Assembly (NCBI GenBank): GCA_030697645.1
Contig: JAUYPI010000006.1
Coordinates: forward strand, 12,017 to 76,016
DNA length: 64,000 nt
Direction of reading: 5' to 3'
Source: a bacterium
GTDB lineage: Bacteria; Patescibacteriota; Minisyncoccia; Phycocordibacterales; VMGT01
A program made the position numbers and the translations under genes. Below the pieces are notes generated by a model. The model saw only the letters and a program-made list of their open reading frames with translations. It searched no databases and had not been told where the DNA came from. Position 1 is the first letter of the stretch, and each line of letters starts with the position of its first letter. Positions 7,583-60,925 of the stretch are shown piece after piece.

Positions 7583-7680
7583 TAATTTTCAAGTCTCAAT
7601 TTCCAATTTTCAATCAATTTTCAATTACTCAATTTTCAAACACGACGTCGTTCGTTATTGAAAATTAGAAATTGAAAATT
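7583..7680. repeat. Family-1 palindromic A-tract element (tandem AATTTTCAAT units flanking an ACGACGTCG core)
   Basis: caattttcaatcaattttcaat...caaacacgacgtcg...ttgaaaattagaaattgaaaatt. Confidence 0.85.
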
Positions 7681-9635: not shown

Positions 9636-9770
9636 TTTAATTTTCAATGCTCAATTTTCAATCAATTTTCAATGACCCAATTTTCAAACACGACGTCGTA
9701 CCGGCGCCGTCATTAAGTCATTGAAACATTGAAAATTTATTGGAAATTGCAAAATTGAAAATTGAAAATT
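9636..9770. repeat. Family-1 palindromic A-tract element
   Basis: Same architecture; central caaacacgacgtcgtaccggcgccgtcattaagtcattgaaac. Confidence 0.85.
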
Positions 9771-10171: not shown

Positions 10172-10307
10172 TTAATTTTCAATTATCAATTATCAATTTT
10201 CAATCAATTTCCAATGAACCAATTTTCAAACACGACGTCGCCGCCACTCAGTCATTCATTGAAACATTGAAAATTTAATGAAAATTGAAAATTGTAAATT
10301 GAAAATT
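10172..10307. repeat. Family-1 palindromic A-tract element
   Basis: aattttcaattatcaattatcaattttcaatcaatttccaat...caaacacgacgtcgccgccactcagtcattc... Confidence 0.85.
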
Positions 10308-10314
10308 TCGTGCT

Positions 10315-10749
10315 ATGGGCAAAAAACGCATCATCAAAAAAAGCGGCGGGGGTTATGACAGCGGACTTAAATCCCGTGCGCTCTCTCGTGTGGCAAAACG
10401 ACAGATCGAAAAGGGAGTGCTGCATATCCAGTCCACCTACAATAATACGCTCCTCACGCTCGCCGAGGCATCGGGTGCGGTGCTCTGCGCCTCGTCGAGC
10501 GGCGCGCTCGGCTTCAAGGGCGCGCGCAAAGGGACGCCCTATGCGGCGGCAAAGGTCGGTGAGCTTATCGGCGAGAAAGCGGTGCAGATGGGAATGCGAG
10601 ATGCAGACATTATAGTGAAGGGCGTTGGTGCAGGCCGAGAGTCGTCCGTCCGCGGCTTCATTTCGCGCGGGATCAGCATTAGCAGTCTTCGGGATGCAAC
10701 GCCCGTACCTTTCAACGGCCCGCGGCCGCCGAAGCCGAGAAGGGTGTAG
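10315..10749 (+). CDS. rpsK: Ribosomal protein S11
   Basis: GVLHIQSTYNNTLLTLAEASG...typical S11. Confidence 0.92.
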   Translation: MGKKRIIKKSGGGYDSGLKSRALSRVAKRQIEKGVLHIQSTYNNTLLTLAEASGAVLCASSSGALGFKGARKGTPYAAAKVGELIGEKAVQMGMRDADIIVKGVGAGRESSVRGFISRGISISSLRDATPVPFNGPRPPKPRRV

Positions 10750-10752
10750 CAC

Positions 10753-10888
10753 GAAATTTCCAATTTTCAATTTTACAATTTCCAATCAATTTTCAATGTG
10801 TCAATGATGCAATGACGGACGACGTCGTGTTTGAAAATTGGGTCATTGCAAAATTGATTGAAAATTGAAAATTGAGACTTGAAAATTA
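10753..10888. repeat. Family-1 palindromic A-tract element (inverted orientation)
   Basis: Reverse-complement arrangement: ...caatgacggacgacgtcgtgtttgaaaattggg... Confidence 0.85.
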
Positions 10889-10909: not shown

Positions 10910-11545
10910 ATGAAACTCGGACCAAAGTATAAAATTTGTAAGCGTTTAGGTCCCGACGTCTTTGAGAAATGCCAGACGCCGCGGTTTGCGCTGGTCGCGA
11001 GCCGCGCTCCGAAGACGAAGCGAGGTGGAAAGCGAGGCGGGAGGCCGTCTCGAACGGATTACGGCAAACACATGCTTGAAAAGCAGCGTGTGCGGTTTAC
11101 TTATGGCCTCTCGGAGCGGCAGTTTGCGCGCTATGTCAAAGAGTCGGCGCGACCGGCCGGCGCGAAGCCTGCAGAGGCGCTCTACCGGCGGATTGAGTCG
11201 CGTCTCGACAATATCGTGTACCGTCTGTCTCTTGCGCGCACGAGAGCACAGGCGCGCCAGCTCGTCTCGCACGGCCTCATTACGGTGAACGACCGGAAAA
11301 TGAGCAGCCCGTCGTATGCGGTGCGAGTCGGCGAGCGGATAGGGGTCAAGCAGAGCAAGCGCGATCTCGGTGTCTTTGCTTCCCGCGGCCGAGGTGCTGA
11401 AGGAGAAGGCATTGTGATGCCCCCGGCGTGGCTCACGTTCGACGGCGCGAAAATGGAAGGAGTTGTGAGCGCCTTGCCTGCCGCGGAGAATGCCGGAGCG
11501 CAGTCGCTTGATTTGCAGGCGGTGATTGAGTTTTATAGCAGATGA
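10910..11545 (+). CDS. rpsD: Ribosomal protein S4
   Basis: MKLGPKYKICKRLG... S4 N-terminus and S4 RNA-binding domain. Confidence 0.92.
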   Translation: MKLGPKYKICKRLGPDVFEKCQTPRFALVASRAPKTKRGGKRGGRPSRTDYGKHMLEKQRVRFTYGLSERQFARYVKESARPAGAKPAEALYRRIESRLDNIVYRLSLARTRAQARQLVSHGLITVNDRKMSSPSYAVRVGERIGVKQSKRDLGVFASRGRGAEGEGIVMPPAWLTFDGAKMEGVVSALPAAENAGAQSLDLQAVIEFYSR

Positions 11546-11547
11546 TG

Positions 11548-11672
11548 AAATTTTCAAGGCTCAATTTTTAATTTTCAATCAATTTTCAATGAACTAATTT
11601 TCAAACACGATGTCGTCCGTCGTTGAGTCATTGAAACATTGAAAATTTATTGAAAATTGCAAAATTGAAAAT
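11548..11672. repeat. Family-1 palindromic A-tract element
   Basis: Same units and core (caaacacgatgtcgtccgtcgttgagtcattgaaac). Confidence 0.85.
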
Positions 11673-11751
11673 TCTCAAGTCACCATGGTAATTTGACACC
11701 TCAAATTTTAAGTGTATAATTTATTTTGTTTACTAACCTACTTTTATTTTT

Positions 11752-12762
11752 ATGCCAGACTACACTATTGCGCTGCCGTCAAAACCACGGGTCGTCTTTG
11801 AAGAGGGAATGAGCGGCATGTATGAGATAGACGGCCTTTATCCAGGCTATGGACATACGCTTGGCAATTCGCTTCGGCGTATTATCCTCTCGTCGCTCCC
11901 CGGGGCGGCCATAACGCACATCAAGATCGAAGGGGTACCGCACGAATTTTCGACGATCGAGGGCGTCAAGGAGGACGTCGTCGCACTCACCCTAAATCTC
12001 AAACGCCTCCGGCTCTCGCTCGCCGGAGACGAGCCGCAGACGATGACCCTGAAGGTGAAAGGGCCGCGAGAAGTCATGGGTGCCGATATTGTGGCACCCG
12101 GGCAGGTTACCATATTGAATCCCGAGCTCCACATCGCAGAGGTGACGGCAAAGACGACGCTTGAGATGGAGCTCACCGTGGAGCGGGGGCTCGGGTATGT
12201 GCCAAAGGAGGTGCTTGAGAAAGAGCGCGTCGAGATCGGGACACTGACGCCGGATGCGATTTTTACTCCGATCCGCCGCGTCAACTACGAGGTGGAAAAT
12301 ATGCGCGTCGGCGATCGCACCGACTTCAATCGGCTGCGGGTCTTTGTTGAAACGGACGGGACGCTCACGCCGCGCGAAGCGCTCGAGCAGTCGATTGAGA
12401 TCATGATCCACCAACTCAAGGCAGTGATCGGCTTTGAGGAGAAGGAGGAAGATGAGACAGAGAGCGCAGATGAGACGATGCGTGGCGAACCCGCTCTTCC
12501 GCGCGGCGAGTCCGAGAACCCTGAGAAGCGGAGCGTCGCGGCGCACGAGGAGCTCGATAAAGAATTTTTGAAAACTCGTATCGAAACGCTTGACGGCCTC
12601 TCTGCCCGCACAGCGCACGCGCTCTCTGAGGCGAACATTCGAACCGTCGGCGGACTCGTACGCAAGAAGGCGGAAGACCTGCTTGCACTCGAGGGGATCG
12701 GGGAGAAAGCGATTGAGGAGATTAGAGACGTGCTTGCGAAAAACGGAGTAACGTTGAAGTGA
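11752..12762 (+). CDS. rpoA: DNA-directed RNA polymerase alpha subunit
   Basis: N-terminal dimerisation domain GYGHTLGNSLRRILLSSLPG and C-terminal alpha-CTD. Confidence 0.93.
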   Translation: MPDYTIALPSKPRVVFEEGMSGMYEIDGLYPGYGHTLGNSLRRIILSSLPGAAITHIKIEGVPHEFSTIEGVKEDVVALTLNLKRLRLSLAGDEPQTMTLKVKGPREVMGADIVAPGQVTILNPELHIAEVTAKTTLEMELTVERGLGYVPKEVLEKERVEIGTLTPDAIFTPIRRVNYEVENMRVGDRTDFNRLRVFVETDGTLTPREALEQSIEIMIHQLKAVIGFEEKEEDETESADETMRGEPALPRGESENPEKRSVAAHEELDKEFLKTRIETLDGLSARTAHALSEANIRTVGGLVRKKAEDLLALEGIGEKAIEEIRDVLAKNGVTLK

Positions 12763-12765
12763 TAT

Positions 12766-13323
12766 ATGCAGGAAAGAATTCCTTTGGAAAAAGTTGGGGA
12801 TGGATCCGAAATATCGAGACAGGAACCTCTCGGGATACTTTCTATTGGTAGTAATTGGACGGAATCTAGCGGCAGGCCGCTCGAAGAAGGAGAATCTCAG
12901 TTCTTTCACTCTACGTATGCATATAATATAAGTCCGGAACAATATCGGGACATTCTCGAAAAAGAAGAGTTTGTACTAGATCGACGGATGTTTGTTGACC
13001 CTATCCCACAAACCGGCTACGGACAGGTTCCCAATGTGGAGATGCGTACGTATAAAGAAAATCCGGACGAGCTTATACTTTTTCGTTTTATTACAAAAGA
13101 TGAAGAGCCGTTTCTTAAGATACAGGCCGAAGGACTTGATCTTAAGGATATAGGGAAAAAAGAAGGGCTGGTTGGAGGACCAGAAAAACGATTCGACCCT
13201 AATTATTTAGGGTATGCACTAAAATTAAGAAAAGTAGGCGAGGAACAATTGGGTGGTTACAAATTTCCTCATAGAGTTGTCACGTTTGAAGTTGTAGAGC
13301 GAATGCCTATTATTCCTGAATAA
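12766..13323 (+). CDS. Hypothetical protein in a low-GC insertion between rpoA and rplQ
   Basis: 185-aa ORF at ~43% GC versus ~62% flanks; starts 4 nt after the rpoA stop; no recognised motif. Confidence 0.55.
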   Translation: MQERIPLEKVGDGSEISRQEPLGILSIGSNWTESSGRPLEEGESQFFHSTYAYNISPEQYRDILEKEEFVLDRRMFVDPIPQTGYGQVPNVEMRTYKENPDELILFRFITKDEEPFLKIQAEGLDLKDIGKKEGLVGGPEKRFDPNYLGYALKLRKVGEEQLGGYKFPHRVVTFEVVERMPIIPE

Positions 13324-13386
13324 TTTTTAGCTTTTAGCGCTAGGTTTTTAGTGCTACTGTGTTAGTCCTCTAAAAGCTAATAGTCT
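13324..13386. repeat. Family-2 palindromic element (AGCTTTTAGC ... CTAAAAGCT)
   Basis: ttagcttttagcgctagg...cctctaaaagctaatag. Confidence 0.7.
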
Positions 13387-13740
13387 ATGCGTCACCACAA
13401 CAGAATCAAAAAATTCGGCCGCGTCGCGCGGCAGCGGAGAGCACTGATCTCCTCGCTCGCCTCATCCCTCATTCGTCATGAGAAGATCACGACGACCGAG
13501 GCGAAAGCAAAGGAGCTTCGGCCATTTATTGAGCGCCTCATCACCGTTGCGCGGCAGGGCACACTCGCCGCGAGGCGAACGACCCTTGCGCGACTTGGCG
13601 GAGAGAGTGTCGCTGCGCGTCGGCTCATGAGCTCTGTTGCCTCGCGCTATCTCTCTCGACCCGGGGGCTACACGCGCATCACAAAACTGCGTGCGCGCAC
13701 CAGCGACAGGGCACCGCAGGCGCGCATTGAATTTGTATGA
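13387..13740 (+). CDS. rplQ: Ribosomal protein L17
   Basis: MRHHNRIKKFGRVARQRRALISSLASSLIRHEKITTTEAKAKELRP typical L17. Confidence 0.92.
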   Translation: MRHHNRIKKFGRVARQRRALISSLASSLIRHEKITTTEAKAKELRPFIERLITVARQGTLAARRTTLARLGGESVAARRLMSSVASRYLSRPGGYTRITKLRARTSDRAPQARIEFV

Positions 13741-14172: not shown

Positions 14173-14284
14173 AAATTTTCAATTATCAATTTTCAATTTT
14201 CAATCAATTTTCAATTTCTCAATTTTTCAAACACAACGCCGACGTCGTCCATTGAAAATTGTAAAATTGAAAATTGAAAATTTA
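14173..14284. repeat. Family-1 palindromic A-tract element
   Basis: aattttcaattatcaattttcaattttcaatcaattttcaatttctc...caaacacaacgccgacgtcgtcc... Confidence 0.85.
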
Positions 14285-14767: not shown

Positions 14768-14886
14768 AATTTTCAATTATCAATTTTCAATCAATTTTGC
14801 AATGAATCAATTTTCAAACACGACGTCGTCCGTCACTCAGTCATTGAAACGTTGAAAATTCATTGAAAATTGCAAAATTGAAAATT
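14768..14886. repeat. Family-1 palindromic A-tract element
   Basis: Same architecture. Confidence 0.85.
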
Positions 14887-15499: not shown

Positions 15500-15640
15500 T
15501 AATTTCCAATTTTCAATTTTGCAATTTTCAATCAATTTTCAATTATCCAATTTTCAAACACGACGCCGACGACGTCCGTCATTGAGTCATTGAAACATTG
15601 AAAATTCATTGGAAATTGAAAATTGTAAATTGAAAATTAA
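15500..15640. repeat. Family-1 palindromic A-tract element
   Basis: Same architecture (caaacacgacgccgacgacgtccgtcattgagtcattgaaac). Confidence 0.85.
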
Positions 15641-17596: not shown

Positions 17597-17710
17597 CAGC
17601 TTTTAGCTGTTAGCTTATAGCTTTTAGCACGGACGGCGGAGCCTCTCAAAAGCTAACAGCGTTATAAGTTTTCCAGCCCTTTGGGCGCAAAGGGCTATGG
17701 CTAAAAGCTC
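17597..17710. repeat. Family-2 palindromic element with inner GC hairpin
   Basis: agcttttagctgttagcttatagcttttagc...ctctcaaaagctaacagc...ccctttgggcgcaaaggg...ggctaaaagct. Confidence 0.75.
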
Positions 17711-26315: not shown

Positions 26316-26348
26316 CTAAAAGCTAAAAGCTATCAGCTAACAGCTTGT
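26316..26348. repeat. Family-2 half-element (ctaaaagctaaaagctatcagctaacagc) directly upstream of fusA
   Basis: Right-arm sequence only. Confidence 0.5.
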
Positions 26349-28487: not shown

Positions 28488-28625
28488 GCATGCTAGTCTG
28501 CAAGAGGTGCCCGTACGATCGGTATTCTGTACCCGCTTATTGGAATATTTACAATCGTCTGGCTGATTTTGTTTACTGCCTCTCTCTATCCGAGATAGAT
28601 TCTCACCTCAAGGAAGGAGGAAGAC

Positions 28626-28823
28626 GTGAAGAAGTTATGGAAAATAATTCGCGGCACCGAAGATCCGGTAAGTTTTGGTATCGAAATGAGTGGGATCGTT
28701 CCTTCTTTGCTTATCGGAGTAGTTCTCGTTATCTTTGCACGGGGTGAGTGGAAGTGGATTGGAGCGTTTTCTCTACTCGTTGCCCTTGCTTTCTTTGTGT
28801 CACCCCGCGTCTGGATAAAGTGA
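28626..28823 (+). CDS. Small hypothetical membrane protein
   Basis: 65 aa, two hydrophobic helices, aaggagg RBS; low-GC pocket. Confidence 0.35.
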   Translation: MKKLWKIIRGTEDPVSFGIEMSGIVPSLLIGVVLVIFARGEWKWIGAFSLLVALAFFVSPRVWIK

Positions 28824-28887
28824 CCACACTCATCGTCCCGCTTAGTAAGCATTGCGCTGAACGGCGGGGCGTTTTTTTTGTATATAC

Positions 28888-28935
28888 GTACAGATACGAA
28901 ACTACTTTGAGAAGTTGGACTTCTCAAAGTAGTTT
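28888..28935. terminator. Perfect 18-bp-stem hairpin
   Basis: cgaaactactttgagaag ttgga cttctcaaagtagtttcg. Confidence 0.5.
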
Positions 28936-29000
28936 CGTCGGTGTTTTTATGTGCGTGGTTTTTGAGATATGGGTTAAAAAACAGCGCGGCCAAAAAAGAA

Positions 29001-29036
29001 CGCCCCACGCATGATATACATGGGGCGTTTTTTTTT
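29001..29036 (+). terminator. Rho-independent terminator
   Basis: acgccccacgcatgatatacatggggcgt followed by ttttttttt. Confidence 0.7.
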
Positions 29037-29122
29037 GTGAAATTGGATCTCCTATTGATCTTCTGAAGGCCGTGGCCTCTGCTGGATGATTTTTTTGTGT
29101 GCGGGGCATATCTGATGCGAAT

Positions 29123-29497
29123 TCACGCTATGCCCAAAGCGATGTTAAGGCGGCGATGAGCACGAGCGATGGCAAGACGTGCTCTCCGTTCTTTTTGGCG
29201 ACATCTGTGACAAACAGGTTCGTTTTCAATGCGCATACTGACCAGTTCGACTTTTTTGCATCTGTAACACCGCTCATGAACGGAAGAGTCATAGTAGCGA
29301 GCGTTGCTATAGCAGTTTTCGCAAATTGGCTCCCTGTCTTCGGTGCGTACTTTGACTGATTTCACCCGCCCGCACACGGAACATTTTTCGTGTGTAGCAG
29401 GATCTTTCTTCCGACACTCCTGGCAACGCAACTTTCCGGATTTACGATTTAGCTGGACTCTTTTTTCTTCTCCGCATACACTGCATATTCCCTGCAT
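29123..29497 (-). CDS. Zinc-ribbon repeat protein (four CxxC pairs)
   Basis: Strong RBS ggagg 5 nt before ATG 29497; CxxC...CxxC repeated. Confidence 0.6.
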   Translation of the reverse strand: MQGICSVCGEEKRVQLNRKSGKLRCQECRKKDPATHEKCSVCGRVKSVKVRTEDREPICENCYSNARYYDSSVHERCYRCKKVELVSMRIENEPVCHRCRQKERRARLAIARAHRRLNIALGIA

Positions 29498-29776
29498 CGC
29501 CACCTCCTCGTTTATGAACAGGGTGAGATAATCGAAATTCTATTTCTTTCTTACCACAGGTGTCTTACAGGAGTCAACCGCGCCTCCCGTAATTTTTTCC
29601 CTATTCCTAATTTTTGGAGTTCAGATTTCCTAAACTCTGTCCGACATCCGATGTCGGAGTCGGACAGGAGATCCTATCATTCCCTCCCCGTGGCCTTTTG
29701 GCGTGGAGTGCACACGGGTACCTTTCTCTGGCGTATACCGAATGCATCAAGGCGATGGATTTAGTATAGTATACGT

Positions 29777-34781: not shown

Positions 34782-34910
34782 AAATTTTCAATTTTACAAT
34801 TTCCAATCAATTTTCAATGTGTCAATGACTCAATGACGGGCGAAGTCGTGTTTGAAAATTGGGTCATTGAAAATTCACTGAAAATTGAAAATTGTAAATT
34901 GAAAATTTCG
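34782..34910. repeat. Family-1 palindromic A-tract element (inverted orientation)
   Basis: ...caatgacgggcgaagtcgtgtttgaaaattggg... Confidence 0.85.
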
Positions 34911-35318: not shown

Positions 35319-35325
35319 AGGTTTG

Positions 35326-35436
35326 AGCTTTTAGCTTATAGCTGTTAGCTTTTAGGGGTTGTCGCGGCGTGCGCGAAGCACGCAATCGTTAGTCTGTCGT
35401 GCCTCTAAAAGCTATAAGCTAACAGCTAAGAGCTTT
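35326..35436. repeat. Family-2 palindromic element
   Basis: gagcttttagcttatagctgttagcttttagg...GC hairpin...ctctaaaagctataagctaacagctaagagc. Confidence 0.8.
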
Positions 35437-37479: not shown

Positions 37480-37613
37480 ATAATTTCCAATTTTCAATTT
37501 TGCAATTTTCAATCAATTTTCAATTATCTAATTTTCAAACACGAACGTCGCCGTGATTGAGTCATTGAAACATTGAAAATTTATTGAAAATTGAGCATTG
37601 AAAATTGAAAATT
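37480..37613. repeat. Family-1 palindromic A-tract element
   Basis: Same architecture. Confidence 0.85.
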
Positions 37614-59836: not shown

Positions 59837-60925
59837 ATGGAGGCCACACAAAGTTCAAACCTCGGTACCGTACAGTCGCACCACTATCATTTAAGTGGGA
59901 GGCAGGTCGCTATAGTTGTGGGGATTGCGGTGCTGATCGCGACAGCGGGAATTGGTGGATATGTTTTTTTAAAAAATTCATTACCGCAGCCACCCCAATT
60001 ACCGATTATTCGTCTGTGGCATAACGGGGTTGTTTATGATGGCGTTGAGGGTTCCTATTGCTGGCCAACTCAAGAATCTTCCGCGGACGGGGAGTTTTTG
60101 AACCTCTGTGTTGACCGAGTATTTGGAGGCCCGGAAACGAGTATTCGTGTTCCTTCAGGAGACACTATGTCGATTGATGTTCAGGCATACGCGCCAGCCG
60201 AAAAGGTATGGGTGACTTTGTTTCAGGAGTCTGGTGAGCGGCTGAGCGATATACCTGTTACTGTCGGAGAAACAGTATCGACCTTCGTCCTTGATACATC
60301 ACCAGGCACATACGTTGTTCTCGTTAGTGGCGCATGGTCTGATGACAAATTCGCCGGAGATATTAATTATTCCTTTACTGTCCAAGTTGTTGGTGGCACT
60401 AACAACGAGATCAATGTTGACACATCAGGCTGGCAAACCTACCGCAATGAGGAGTTTGAATTTGAGGTGAAGTATCCTGGAGGGTGGTTTAACACGCGCA
60501 ACCTCATTGAGGATATTAGGGAAGAAAAACTTTTTGAATTTTCGAGTGAGAAAAATTTTACCGTAGACGCCATTACGTTACAGATAGTTCGTTCAGAAAG
60601 CATACAGAGTAAGAATTTATTCGTGGATCTTCAAAATTTAAAACCTGGAGAAACTTTTGAACAGGACCTTGTCGTATACACCAAAATTGAGGACCTCAAT
60701 ATCGGAGGATTTTTAGCCATTCGCCATACCGCAGACAGAAGTTCAATACCATACATAGCACTGCCTATACGGAGCGAAATCCTTTTGAAAAGAGACGGGA
60801 CCACTTTTCTCTTTGTGTTTGTTGGTTCGCCAGAAATTTTTGAACATCAGAAAATCGTTTTCGATCAAATTCTCTCAACCTTCCGATTTCTTGAGCCGAG
60901 CAGGAAGGCTTTTCCGTTGGAGTAA
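59837..60925 (+). CDS. Hypothetical membrane-anchored extracytoplasmic protein (low-GC block)
   Basis: N-terminal TM helix VAIVVGIAVLIATAGIGGYVFL; beta-rich composition. Confidence 0.5.
   Translation: MEATQSSNLGTVQSHHYHLSGRQVAIVVGIAVLIATAGIGGYVFLKNSLPQPPQLPIIRLWHNGVVYDGVEGSYCWPTQESSADGEFLNLCVDRVFGGPETSIRVPSGDTMSIDVQAYAPAEKVWVTLFQESGERLSDIPVTVGETVSTFVLDTSPGTYVVLVSGAWSDDKFAGDINYSFTVQVVGGTNNEINVDTSGWQTYRNEEFEFEVKYPGGWFNTRNLIEDIREEKLFEFSSEKNFTVDAITLQIVRSESIQSKNLFVDLQNLKPGETFEQDLVVYTKIEDLNIGGFLAIRHTADRSSIPYIALPIRSEILLKRDGTTFLFVFVGSPEIFEHQKIVFDQILSTFRFLEPSRKAFPLE

Follow-up and report, generated by a model that had tools for sequence, protein, structure and literature searches.

For a gene that stands between rpoA, encoding the alpha subunit of RNA polymerase, and rplQ, encoding ribosomal protein L17, the first question is how it came to be there. 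The adjacency of these two genes is among the most stable in bacteria, and it is kept in 81 of the 81 relatives that we examined. The stretch of 64,000 nucleotides analysed here (the window), from a Parcubacteria-class bacterium of the candidate phyla radiation, departs from it by an open reading frame of 185 amino acids, ORF185. The questions that follow are whether this frame is a gene, when it entered, how it is expressed, and what kind of protein it might encode.

The rpoA-rplQ junction and its empty counterparts

The end of the alpha operon reads rpsK (10315-10749), rpsD (10910-11545), rpoA, ORF185, rplQ, rplM, rpsI, grpE and dnaK. ORF185 occupies 12766..13323 on the forward strand, from an ATG to a TAA. 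It is separated from the rpoA stop codon (TGA, 12760-12762) by the 3 nt TAT (12763..12765, + strand), which puts the ATG at base 4 past the TGA, and from the start of rplQ by 63 nt. These coordinates agree with an earlier, sequence-only reading of this DNA, which had the ORF begin 4 nt past the rpoA stop and end before a palindromic element and rplQ. That reading was also right about the length and the low GC content, although its value of about 43% has to be replaced by the computed one, 41.4%. Its claim of deviant composition and codon usage holds. The GC3 of ORF185 is 0.33 (0.328, vs 0.60-0.74 in nine neighbouring genes), the lowest in the window (z = -3.4; mean 0.631, sd 0.090, 51 ORFs), and its codon-usage index has a z of -2.05.

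Both flanking genes are preserved. The rpoA gene (336 aa, 11752..12762, + strand) is intact, as seen from the Pfam domains found on the identical gene at L093/L094 and from the alignment of the C-terminus. The latter (...G[IV]TLK*) stops at the same residue as in relatives, so the TGA is the genuine stop and rpoA is undamaged. For the same reason, we could rule out that donor DNA had replaced the 3' end of rpoA. The last 15 rpoA codons have a normal GC3 (0.6 in a by-eye count), and the local drop in GC reflects amino-acid composition. Recoding of UGA (code 25) was ruled out as well, since RpoA and L17 both stop, at TGA, at residues typical of their families. ORF185 is in frame with rpoA across TGA TAT ATG (12760-12768), such that read-through of the UGA would yield an alpha-ORF185 fusion; by chance alone, 1 in 3 such pairs would share a frame, and there is no sign of recoding.

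The closest sampled relative (L099), whose RpoA is 88% identical and whose DNA is 82-88% identical (mostly 84-86%), has the order rpoA-rplQ-rplM-rpsI-grpE-dnaK, matching the window, with a spacer of just 101 nt between the first two genes. DNA homology between the two genomes breaks at the rpoA stop (12760), with the TAT spacer marking the left insertion junction, and returns at 13387, exactly at the start codon of rplQ (117 aa, 13387..13740, + strand). A second relative (L100, 79%) lacks ORF185 and has a spacer of 123 nt. Another 79 Parcubacteria/Paceibacteria genomes, with RpoA at 60-67% identity, all have rpoA and rplQ 1-288 nt apart, and no homologue of ORF185 lies within 4 kb on either side of the pair. 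Relatives with the two genes side by side and no ORF185, which the sequence-only reading had proposed to look for, thus number L099, L100 and 79 more. The contrary case, a GC-matched homologue at this position in every relative, was not found, and hence the insertion reading stands.

ORF185 therefore combines what identifies a horizontally acquired gene: deviant composition, an empty site in close relatives, and homologues in three or four contexts. The earlier proposal of a horizontally acquired insertion in the alpha operon is confirmed by the empty sites in L099 and L100, by the GC3 and by the homologues elsewhere. ORF185 would have entered the short spacer after the lineage parted from its closest sampled relatives, and both rpoA and rplQ would have stayed intact in the process. 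No integrase, transposase, direct repeat or tRNA was found at the insertion (11.5-14.3 kb), nor did we find a target-site duplication, a mobility gene or a donor sequence for ORF185. A tblastn search of the window revealed no further copy.

The 63-nt spacer before rplQ contains a palindrome, TTAGCTTTTAG...CTAAAAGCTAA (13327-13380), which belongs to what we call family 2. Heptamer repeats of this family (TTAGCTTTTAG-like) have 13 matches in the window vs 0.63 expected, and other copies lie at 17603-17627, 26316-26333 and 35324-35429. Because of these further copies, we regard the palindrome as native to the genome. The rpoA-rplQ spacers of the empty-site relatives contain analogous palindromes with TTTTGAC/TTTTGAG repeats (L099 1186-1286; L100 2527-2648), which indicates that this junction had a palindromic element before the insertion. 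The fold energy of 13327-13380 is no better than that of shuffled sequence (z = -0.5). A known RNA in the spacer was ruled out, as Rfam gives nothing in 12766-13386; on neighbouring palindromes it gives spurious miRNA-hairpin matches only.

A second group of palindromes (family 1), AT-rich and about 110-130 nt long, occurs in nearly every ribosomal-protein operon spacer (7605-7626, 9653-9748, 10195-10286, 10777-10798, 11570-11658, 14195-14216, 14850-14871, 15523-15617, 34798-34886 and 37504-37592). Arms of AATTTTCAAT-type repeats flank a GC-rich centre (...caaacacgacgtcg...), with 16 arm matches vs 0 expected, and the elements resemble a MITE- or REP-like family that is spreading through operon spacers. 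The heavy colonisation by palindromic repeats shows that the intergenic spacers of the genome tolerate added DNA.

Other regions of the window also have a low GC3. Two adjacent ORFs at 59180-59737 (185 aa) and 59837-60925 (362 aa) have GC3 values of 0.33 and 0.43 and no Pfam match, and probably form another foreign islet; the first, despite its equal length and low GC, was ruled out as a paralogue and is unrelated to ORF185. On the reverse strand, two ORFs at 28586-29503 have a GC3 reduced to about 0.47, and one of them gives weak zinc-ribbon matches (DZR_2, IS1595 transposase zinc ribbon).

How might a gene in this position be expressed? A promoter-like sigma-70 site, TTGACA-16-TATAAT (11693..11720, + strand), lies 32 nt 5' of rpoA, past a family-1 palindrome. 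It was identified by consensus matching alone, and its agreement with the consensus at 12 of 12 positions suggests that rpoA owns a strong promoter inside the operon. No promoter-like site was found between rpoA and ORF185, and a weaker one (9/12) lies within the 3' end of ORF185 (13286-13313). The strong rpoA promoter is most likely the one from which ORF185 is transcribed. ORF185 would then share a transcript with rpoA starting from the site at 11693-11720, be translated by re-initiation 3 nt past the rpoA stop, and probably show constitutive expression at a level set by that of rpoA. The rplQ gene would be read through the palindromic spacer on the same transcript, or from the promoter-like site at 13286-13313.

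Our preferred reading, which we hold to be probable as a whole, is that ORF185 is a functional, horizontally acquired gene that entered the rpoA-rplQ spacer after the split from the sampled relatives, left the flanking genes intact, is transcribed with rpoA, and encodes a core that is perhaps a divergent ADP-ribosyltransferase-like fold.

The ORF185 protein and its predicted fold

The identical protein was recovered in a search of 5.8 billion protein clusters, annotated as a 'hypothetical protein' of an unclassified MAG. The same search retrieved five further full-length homologues and one truncated copy, with 63-75% amino-acid identity. A codon-aware comparison gave 0.46-0.65 differences per site at third positions, vs 0.09-0.32 at the first two. 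Among family members synonymous sites are saturated, dN/dS is about 0.05 for the closest pair, and 79 residues are invariant across the six full-length members. A conserved protein with saturated synonymous sites and such a low dN/dS is not a chance ORF. The N-terminal 24-35 residues or so are variable and predicted to be disordered, while the conserved core (residues ~25-185; 12838..13323, + strand) is the sole part with DNA-level similarity (67-69%) to the homologues elsewhere.

The searches against known families place ORF185 in none of them. There was no match in Pfam, NCBIfam, PADLOC or PDB, the latter searched with sequences and profile, and PHROG returned a few weak, non-significant matches (best E 0.0084). 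The Pfam scan covered all 7 members at E<=10. Its best family match, the Tn916 Integrase_DNA domain, was discarded because it lies well below the cut-off (E 0.09-0.11). The earlier statement that ORF185 is not a LAGLIDADG, GIY-YIG or HNH endonuclease is in line with the absence of any Pfam match. PADLOC found 0 defence families for all 7 members. ORF185 matches no known toxin-antitoxin or defence family and its neighbours are just rpoA and rplQ; the co-location of HepT, NYN and Fic genes with homologues at other loci is context and not a family match. Since no immunity or antitoxin gene lies beside ORF185, we infer that self-toxicity is unlikely. More plausible than a self-toxin is an enzyme that modifies a specific target, a degenerate ADP-ribosyltransferase-like binding protein, or an effector. 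The family is thus undescribed, and our tests do not place it among the ADP-ribosyltransferases, the homing endonucleases or the toxin-antitoxin and defence systems.

Two members of the family were modelled with AlphaFold (pLDDT 65.5 and 66.2, about 30% of each model at low confidence), and both models have the same order of secondary-structure elements. After a disordered N-terminal tail comes a strand whose end is the invariant FFHST, and then a helix, a short strand and a long loop. The invariant NPDE precedes the next strand, and a helix, a low-confidence loop and a long C-terminal beta-hairpin complete the order. The conserved alpha/beta core in the models of ORF185 spans about 150 residues. 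When these models were compared with PDB using Foldseek, the Vis toxin was matched at E 0.053 (probability 0.72, non-significant), and a chain of anthrax lethal factor, C3larvin, CDTa/iota Ia and the mART domain of SdeA also appeared, again non-significantly. Domain 2 of anthrax lethal factor is an inactive ADP-ribosyltransferase-like domain. Among the structures of BFVD, the match was a phage protein with an ADP-ribosyltransferase domain (E 0.017, probability 0.84, non-significant), along with equally non-significant matches to ModB, ModA and several other phage ADP-ribosyltransferases. No match reaches significance (all E > 0.01, TM 0.2-0.33), and ADP-ribosyltransferases dominate the tops of the lists. 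The lack of any recognisable motif, put forward in the earlier reading, is therefore correct for the sequence, while the predicted structures weakly but repeatedly resemble ADP-ribosyltransferases.

Sequence comparisons do not show this resemblance. There is no sequence or profile match of any of the 7 members to an ADP-ribosyltransferase family in Pfam or PDB profiles, and hhalign against T4 ModA/ModB gives a probability of 0.1. The catalytic triads of ADP-ribosyltransferases are R/S-T-S/[QE]xE or H/Y/E, on strands 1, 2 and 5. In a by-eye comparison with these triads, R-S-E or H-Y-E residues in the canonical order or spacing were not seen, nor were a canonically placed Arg, a strand-2 Tyr or an ExE. 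The sole candidates are the invariant H48-S49-T50, ending the first strand, and the invariant D101-E102, before the third, hydrophobic one. The most conserved blocks of the family are GE[SY]QFFHST and NPDEL[IV]LFR; in the models both seem to lie at strand ends, where ADP-ribosyltransferases put NAD-contacting residues.

It is possible, though on balance unlikely, that ORF185 is a foreign and functional gene whose likeness to ADP-ribosyltransferases is spurious, and that it encodes a binding or regulatory protein, an anti-defence or immunity factor, or some other enzyme. Every fold match is non-significant and single-stranded DNA-binding proteins also occur among them; the sequence families give no match, the putative triads are non-canonical, and the window contains no partner antitoxin. 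A spurious likeness accounts less easily for ADP-ribosyltransferases topping two libraries with two models, at probabilities of 0.84 and 0.72, and for conserved blocks that appear to be placed like NAD-contacting residues. We therefore retain, at roughly even chances and on the strength of the models, the reading of the ORF185 core as an ADP-ribosyltransferase-like fold. Such a divergent core could belong to an NAD-using modifying enzyme or to a toxin- or effector-type derivative with altered catalysis. That ORF185 is an active ADP-ribosyltransferase is a more doubtful proposition, if still one to be taken seriously.

The R-S-E mono-ADP-ribosyltransferases (Vis, the C3-like enzymes, iota Ia/CDTa, and Alt, ModA and ModB of T4) are the best structural matches, weak as these are. 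They resemble ORF185 in the size of the core (about 150-200 aa), in having conserved motifs at strand ends, and in being encoded by accessory, horizontally moving genes. Unlike them, ORF185 lacks an Arg placed on a strand some 25-45 residues ahead of the S-T motif, and where they have '[QE]xE' its sequence is 'PDE'. It is also without the helical domain that C3 and Mod enzymes typically have at the N-terminus, and its hosts are Parcubacteria-type bacteria rather than pathogens or phages.

The position next to rpoA invites a further idea, because both alpha subunits of RNA polymerase are the annotated targets of ADP-ribosylation by T4 ModA. ORF185 might then be a new and highly divergent branch of the ADP-ribosyltransferase fold that is co-expressed with the gene of its substrate and modifies the alpha subunit, or else a ribosomal or translation component. 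If true, this would be a host-encoded, constitutive version of a phage take-over, in which Alt and ModA act on alpha and ModB on translation. As the homologues are not beside rpoA, we treat the adjacency as a coincidence, and we consider this idea very improbable.

Homologues at other loci and alternative origins

The homologues provide additional information on how the gene is inherited. Two of them, P0003 and P0002 (L001/L002 and L091), share a common locus, 3' of a gene for a HepT-type ribonuclease and 5' of glyA, with 79% nucleotide identity within the gene. That two species share this locus indicates vertical descent at it. At the loci of P0006 (L004-L009), an NYN-domain fragment is followed by P0006, a converging 161-aa membrane-anchored ORF and rplI, and strain variants carry rve/IS30-type insertions on either side. 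Genes of rve type and HTH_38 (IS30-like) genes flank the P0006 block at L004 1428-2327 and 4182-5177 and at L006 2679-3674; the block itself, of 1650 bp, is 99.9% identical between strains, and the locus is a hot spot of insertion sequences. The two apparent P0006 contexts are one locus with or without insertion sequences, and so give no evidence that a module is mobile. The host of P0006, the one checked, is Parcubacteria-like as judged from its CTP synthase, which is 71-75% identical to Sungbacteria/Parcubacteria proteins. P0007 (L090 418-750) is truncated and lies directly 3' of a Fic/DOC gene; just residues 22-99 can be recovered in any frame, hence it is a decaying copy. A conserved partner gene was ruled out, since the genes that converge on P0006 (161 aa) and P0003 (126 aa) show no relationship to one another and do not occur in the window.

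At every locus measured, the family member has a lower GC3 than most or all of the genes around it (0.24 vs about 0.40-0.64 at the P0006 loci, 0.43 vs 0.50-0.65 at L001). An exhaustive profile search of 1.84 billion representatives gave no further credible member, and no new one was found among IMG/VR viral contigs, in a scan of metagenome contigs, or by tblastn against phages and plasmids. One candidate, P0008, was set aside as a repeat artefact: its 144 aa consist of tandem FFHSTWDYNMNDHQYKQV units that mimic the FFHST[YW]AYNIsPEQY motif of the family (profile E 1e-6, three repeats), and it is probably a product of repeats or assembly. The family thus has about half a dozen members in some 15 billion public proteins. 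It is a rare accessory gene found in several unrelated contexts and known so far from metagenomic contigs alone.

An insertion between two conserved genes recalls free-standing homing genes, and ORF185 could in principle be an undescribed nuclease that cleaves rpoA-rplQ junctions lacking it, or some other conserved site, and copies itself into the cut. Like the seg/mob homing endonuclease genes of T4, it shows presence or absence at a precise intergenic site, foreign composition in each locus measured, and a sporadic distribution; the site lies between two highly conserved genes with intact flanks, and homologues also adjoin the conserved housekeeping genes glyA, rplI and purD. The first of these features, seen here in L099 and L100, would be shown by any insertion into conserved DNA, and in tiny genomes most neighbours are housekeeping genes anyway. 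Unlike the seg/mob genes, ORF185 has no GIY-YIG, HNH, LAGLIDADG or PD-(D/E)xK signature, no nuclease motif or family was found in Pfam, NCBIfam or PHROG, and the fold matches include no nuclease. The family is also extremely small: about 15 billion proteins include six or seven copies, and viral, phage and plasmid collections yielded none. At their common locus, P0002 and P0003 (dN/dS 0.05) look like a host-useful gene inherited vertically under purifying selection. We thus consider a homing gene improbable, and a functional accessory gene acquired by horizontal transfer remains the preferred reading.

It is less credible still that ORF185 is an ancestral, lineage-specific gene of the rpoA-rplQ junction that was lost in relatives. 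The gene is fixed, in that every contig with the exact RpoA or L17 protein also has ORF185, and the nearest relative is about 15% diverged in DNA, which means that the polarity rests on parsimony. Yet an ancestral gene would require losses in L099, in L100 and in all 79 other genomes, its GC3 of 0.33 in a genome of GC3 0.63 shows no amelioration, and its homologues occupy unrelated contexts. That the assembly is chimeric, or that ORF185 is a frame left open by chance in AT-rich spacer DNA, can practically be dismissed: although the window is part of a metagenome-assembled genome and AT-rich DNA, with fewer GC-rich codons, can contain long chance ORFs, the rpoA-ORF185-rplQ DNA and its junctions are 100% identical in four assemblies of different data sets (the other three being GCA_034376905.1 and two Logan assemblies of other sequencing runs), and the protein is conserved under strong purifying selection.

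A foreign gene in a core operon

Alterations of the cluster of ribosomal-protein and RNA-polymerase genes have been described before, with 163 events in Gammaproteobacteria and Bacilli, for which horizontally acquired segments and transposable elements are possible mechanisms (PMC8046335). Disconnections of operons begin there with a few genes inserted between two operons (PMC8046335). ORF185 resembles these events in that few foreign genes are inserted in the cluster and the flanking genes are intact. It differs from the disconnections in lying inside the alpha operon, 3 nt past a stop codon, and from the events in general in being a single orphan gene in a host of the candidate phyla radiation, with no transposase nearby. 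Insertions into this operon cluster are documented but uncommon, and ORF185 is a clean single-gene example: a datable entry of one foreign gene between rpoA and rplQ in which neither neighbour was harmed.

If the likeness to ADP-ribosyltransferases is real, ORF185 would represent a new branch of that superfamily and would point to a host-encoded enzyme that modifies components of transcription or translation in these bacteria. Otherwise, and more likely, it is just another hypothetical protein that arrived by horizontal transfer. Strong purifying selection and the lack of relatives detectable by sequence make the family a compact target in the search for a new activity. For the organism, the locus shows that even in a streamlined genome of well under 1 Mb a core transcription-translation operon can accept, and probably express, a cargo gene.
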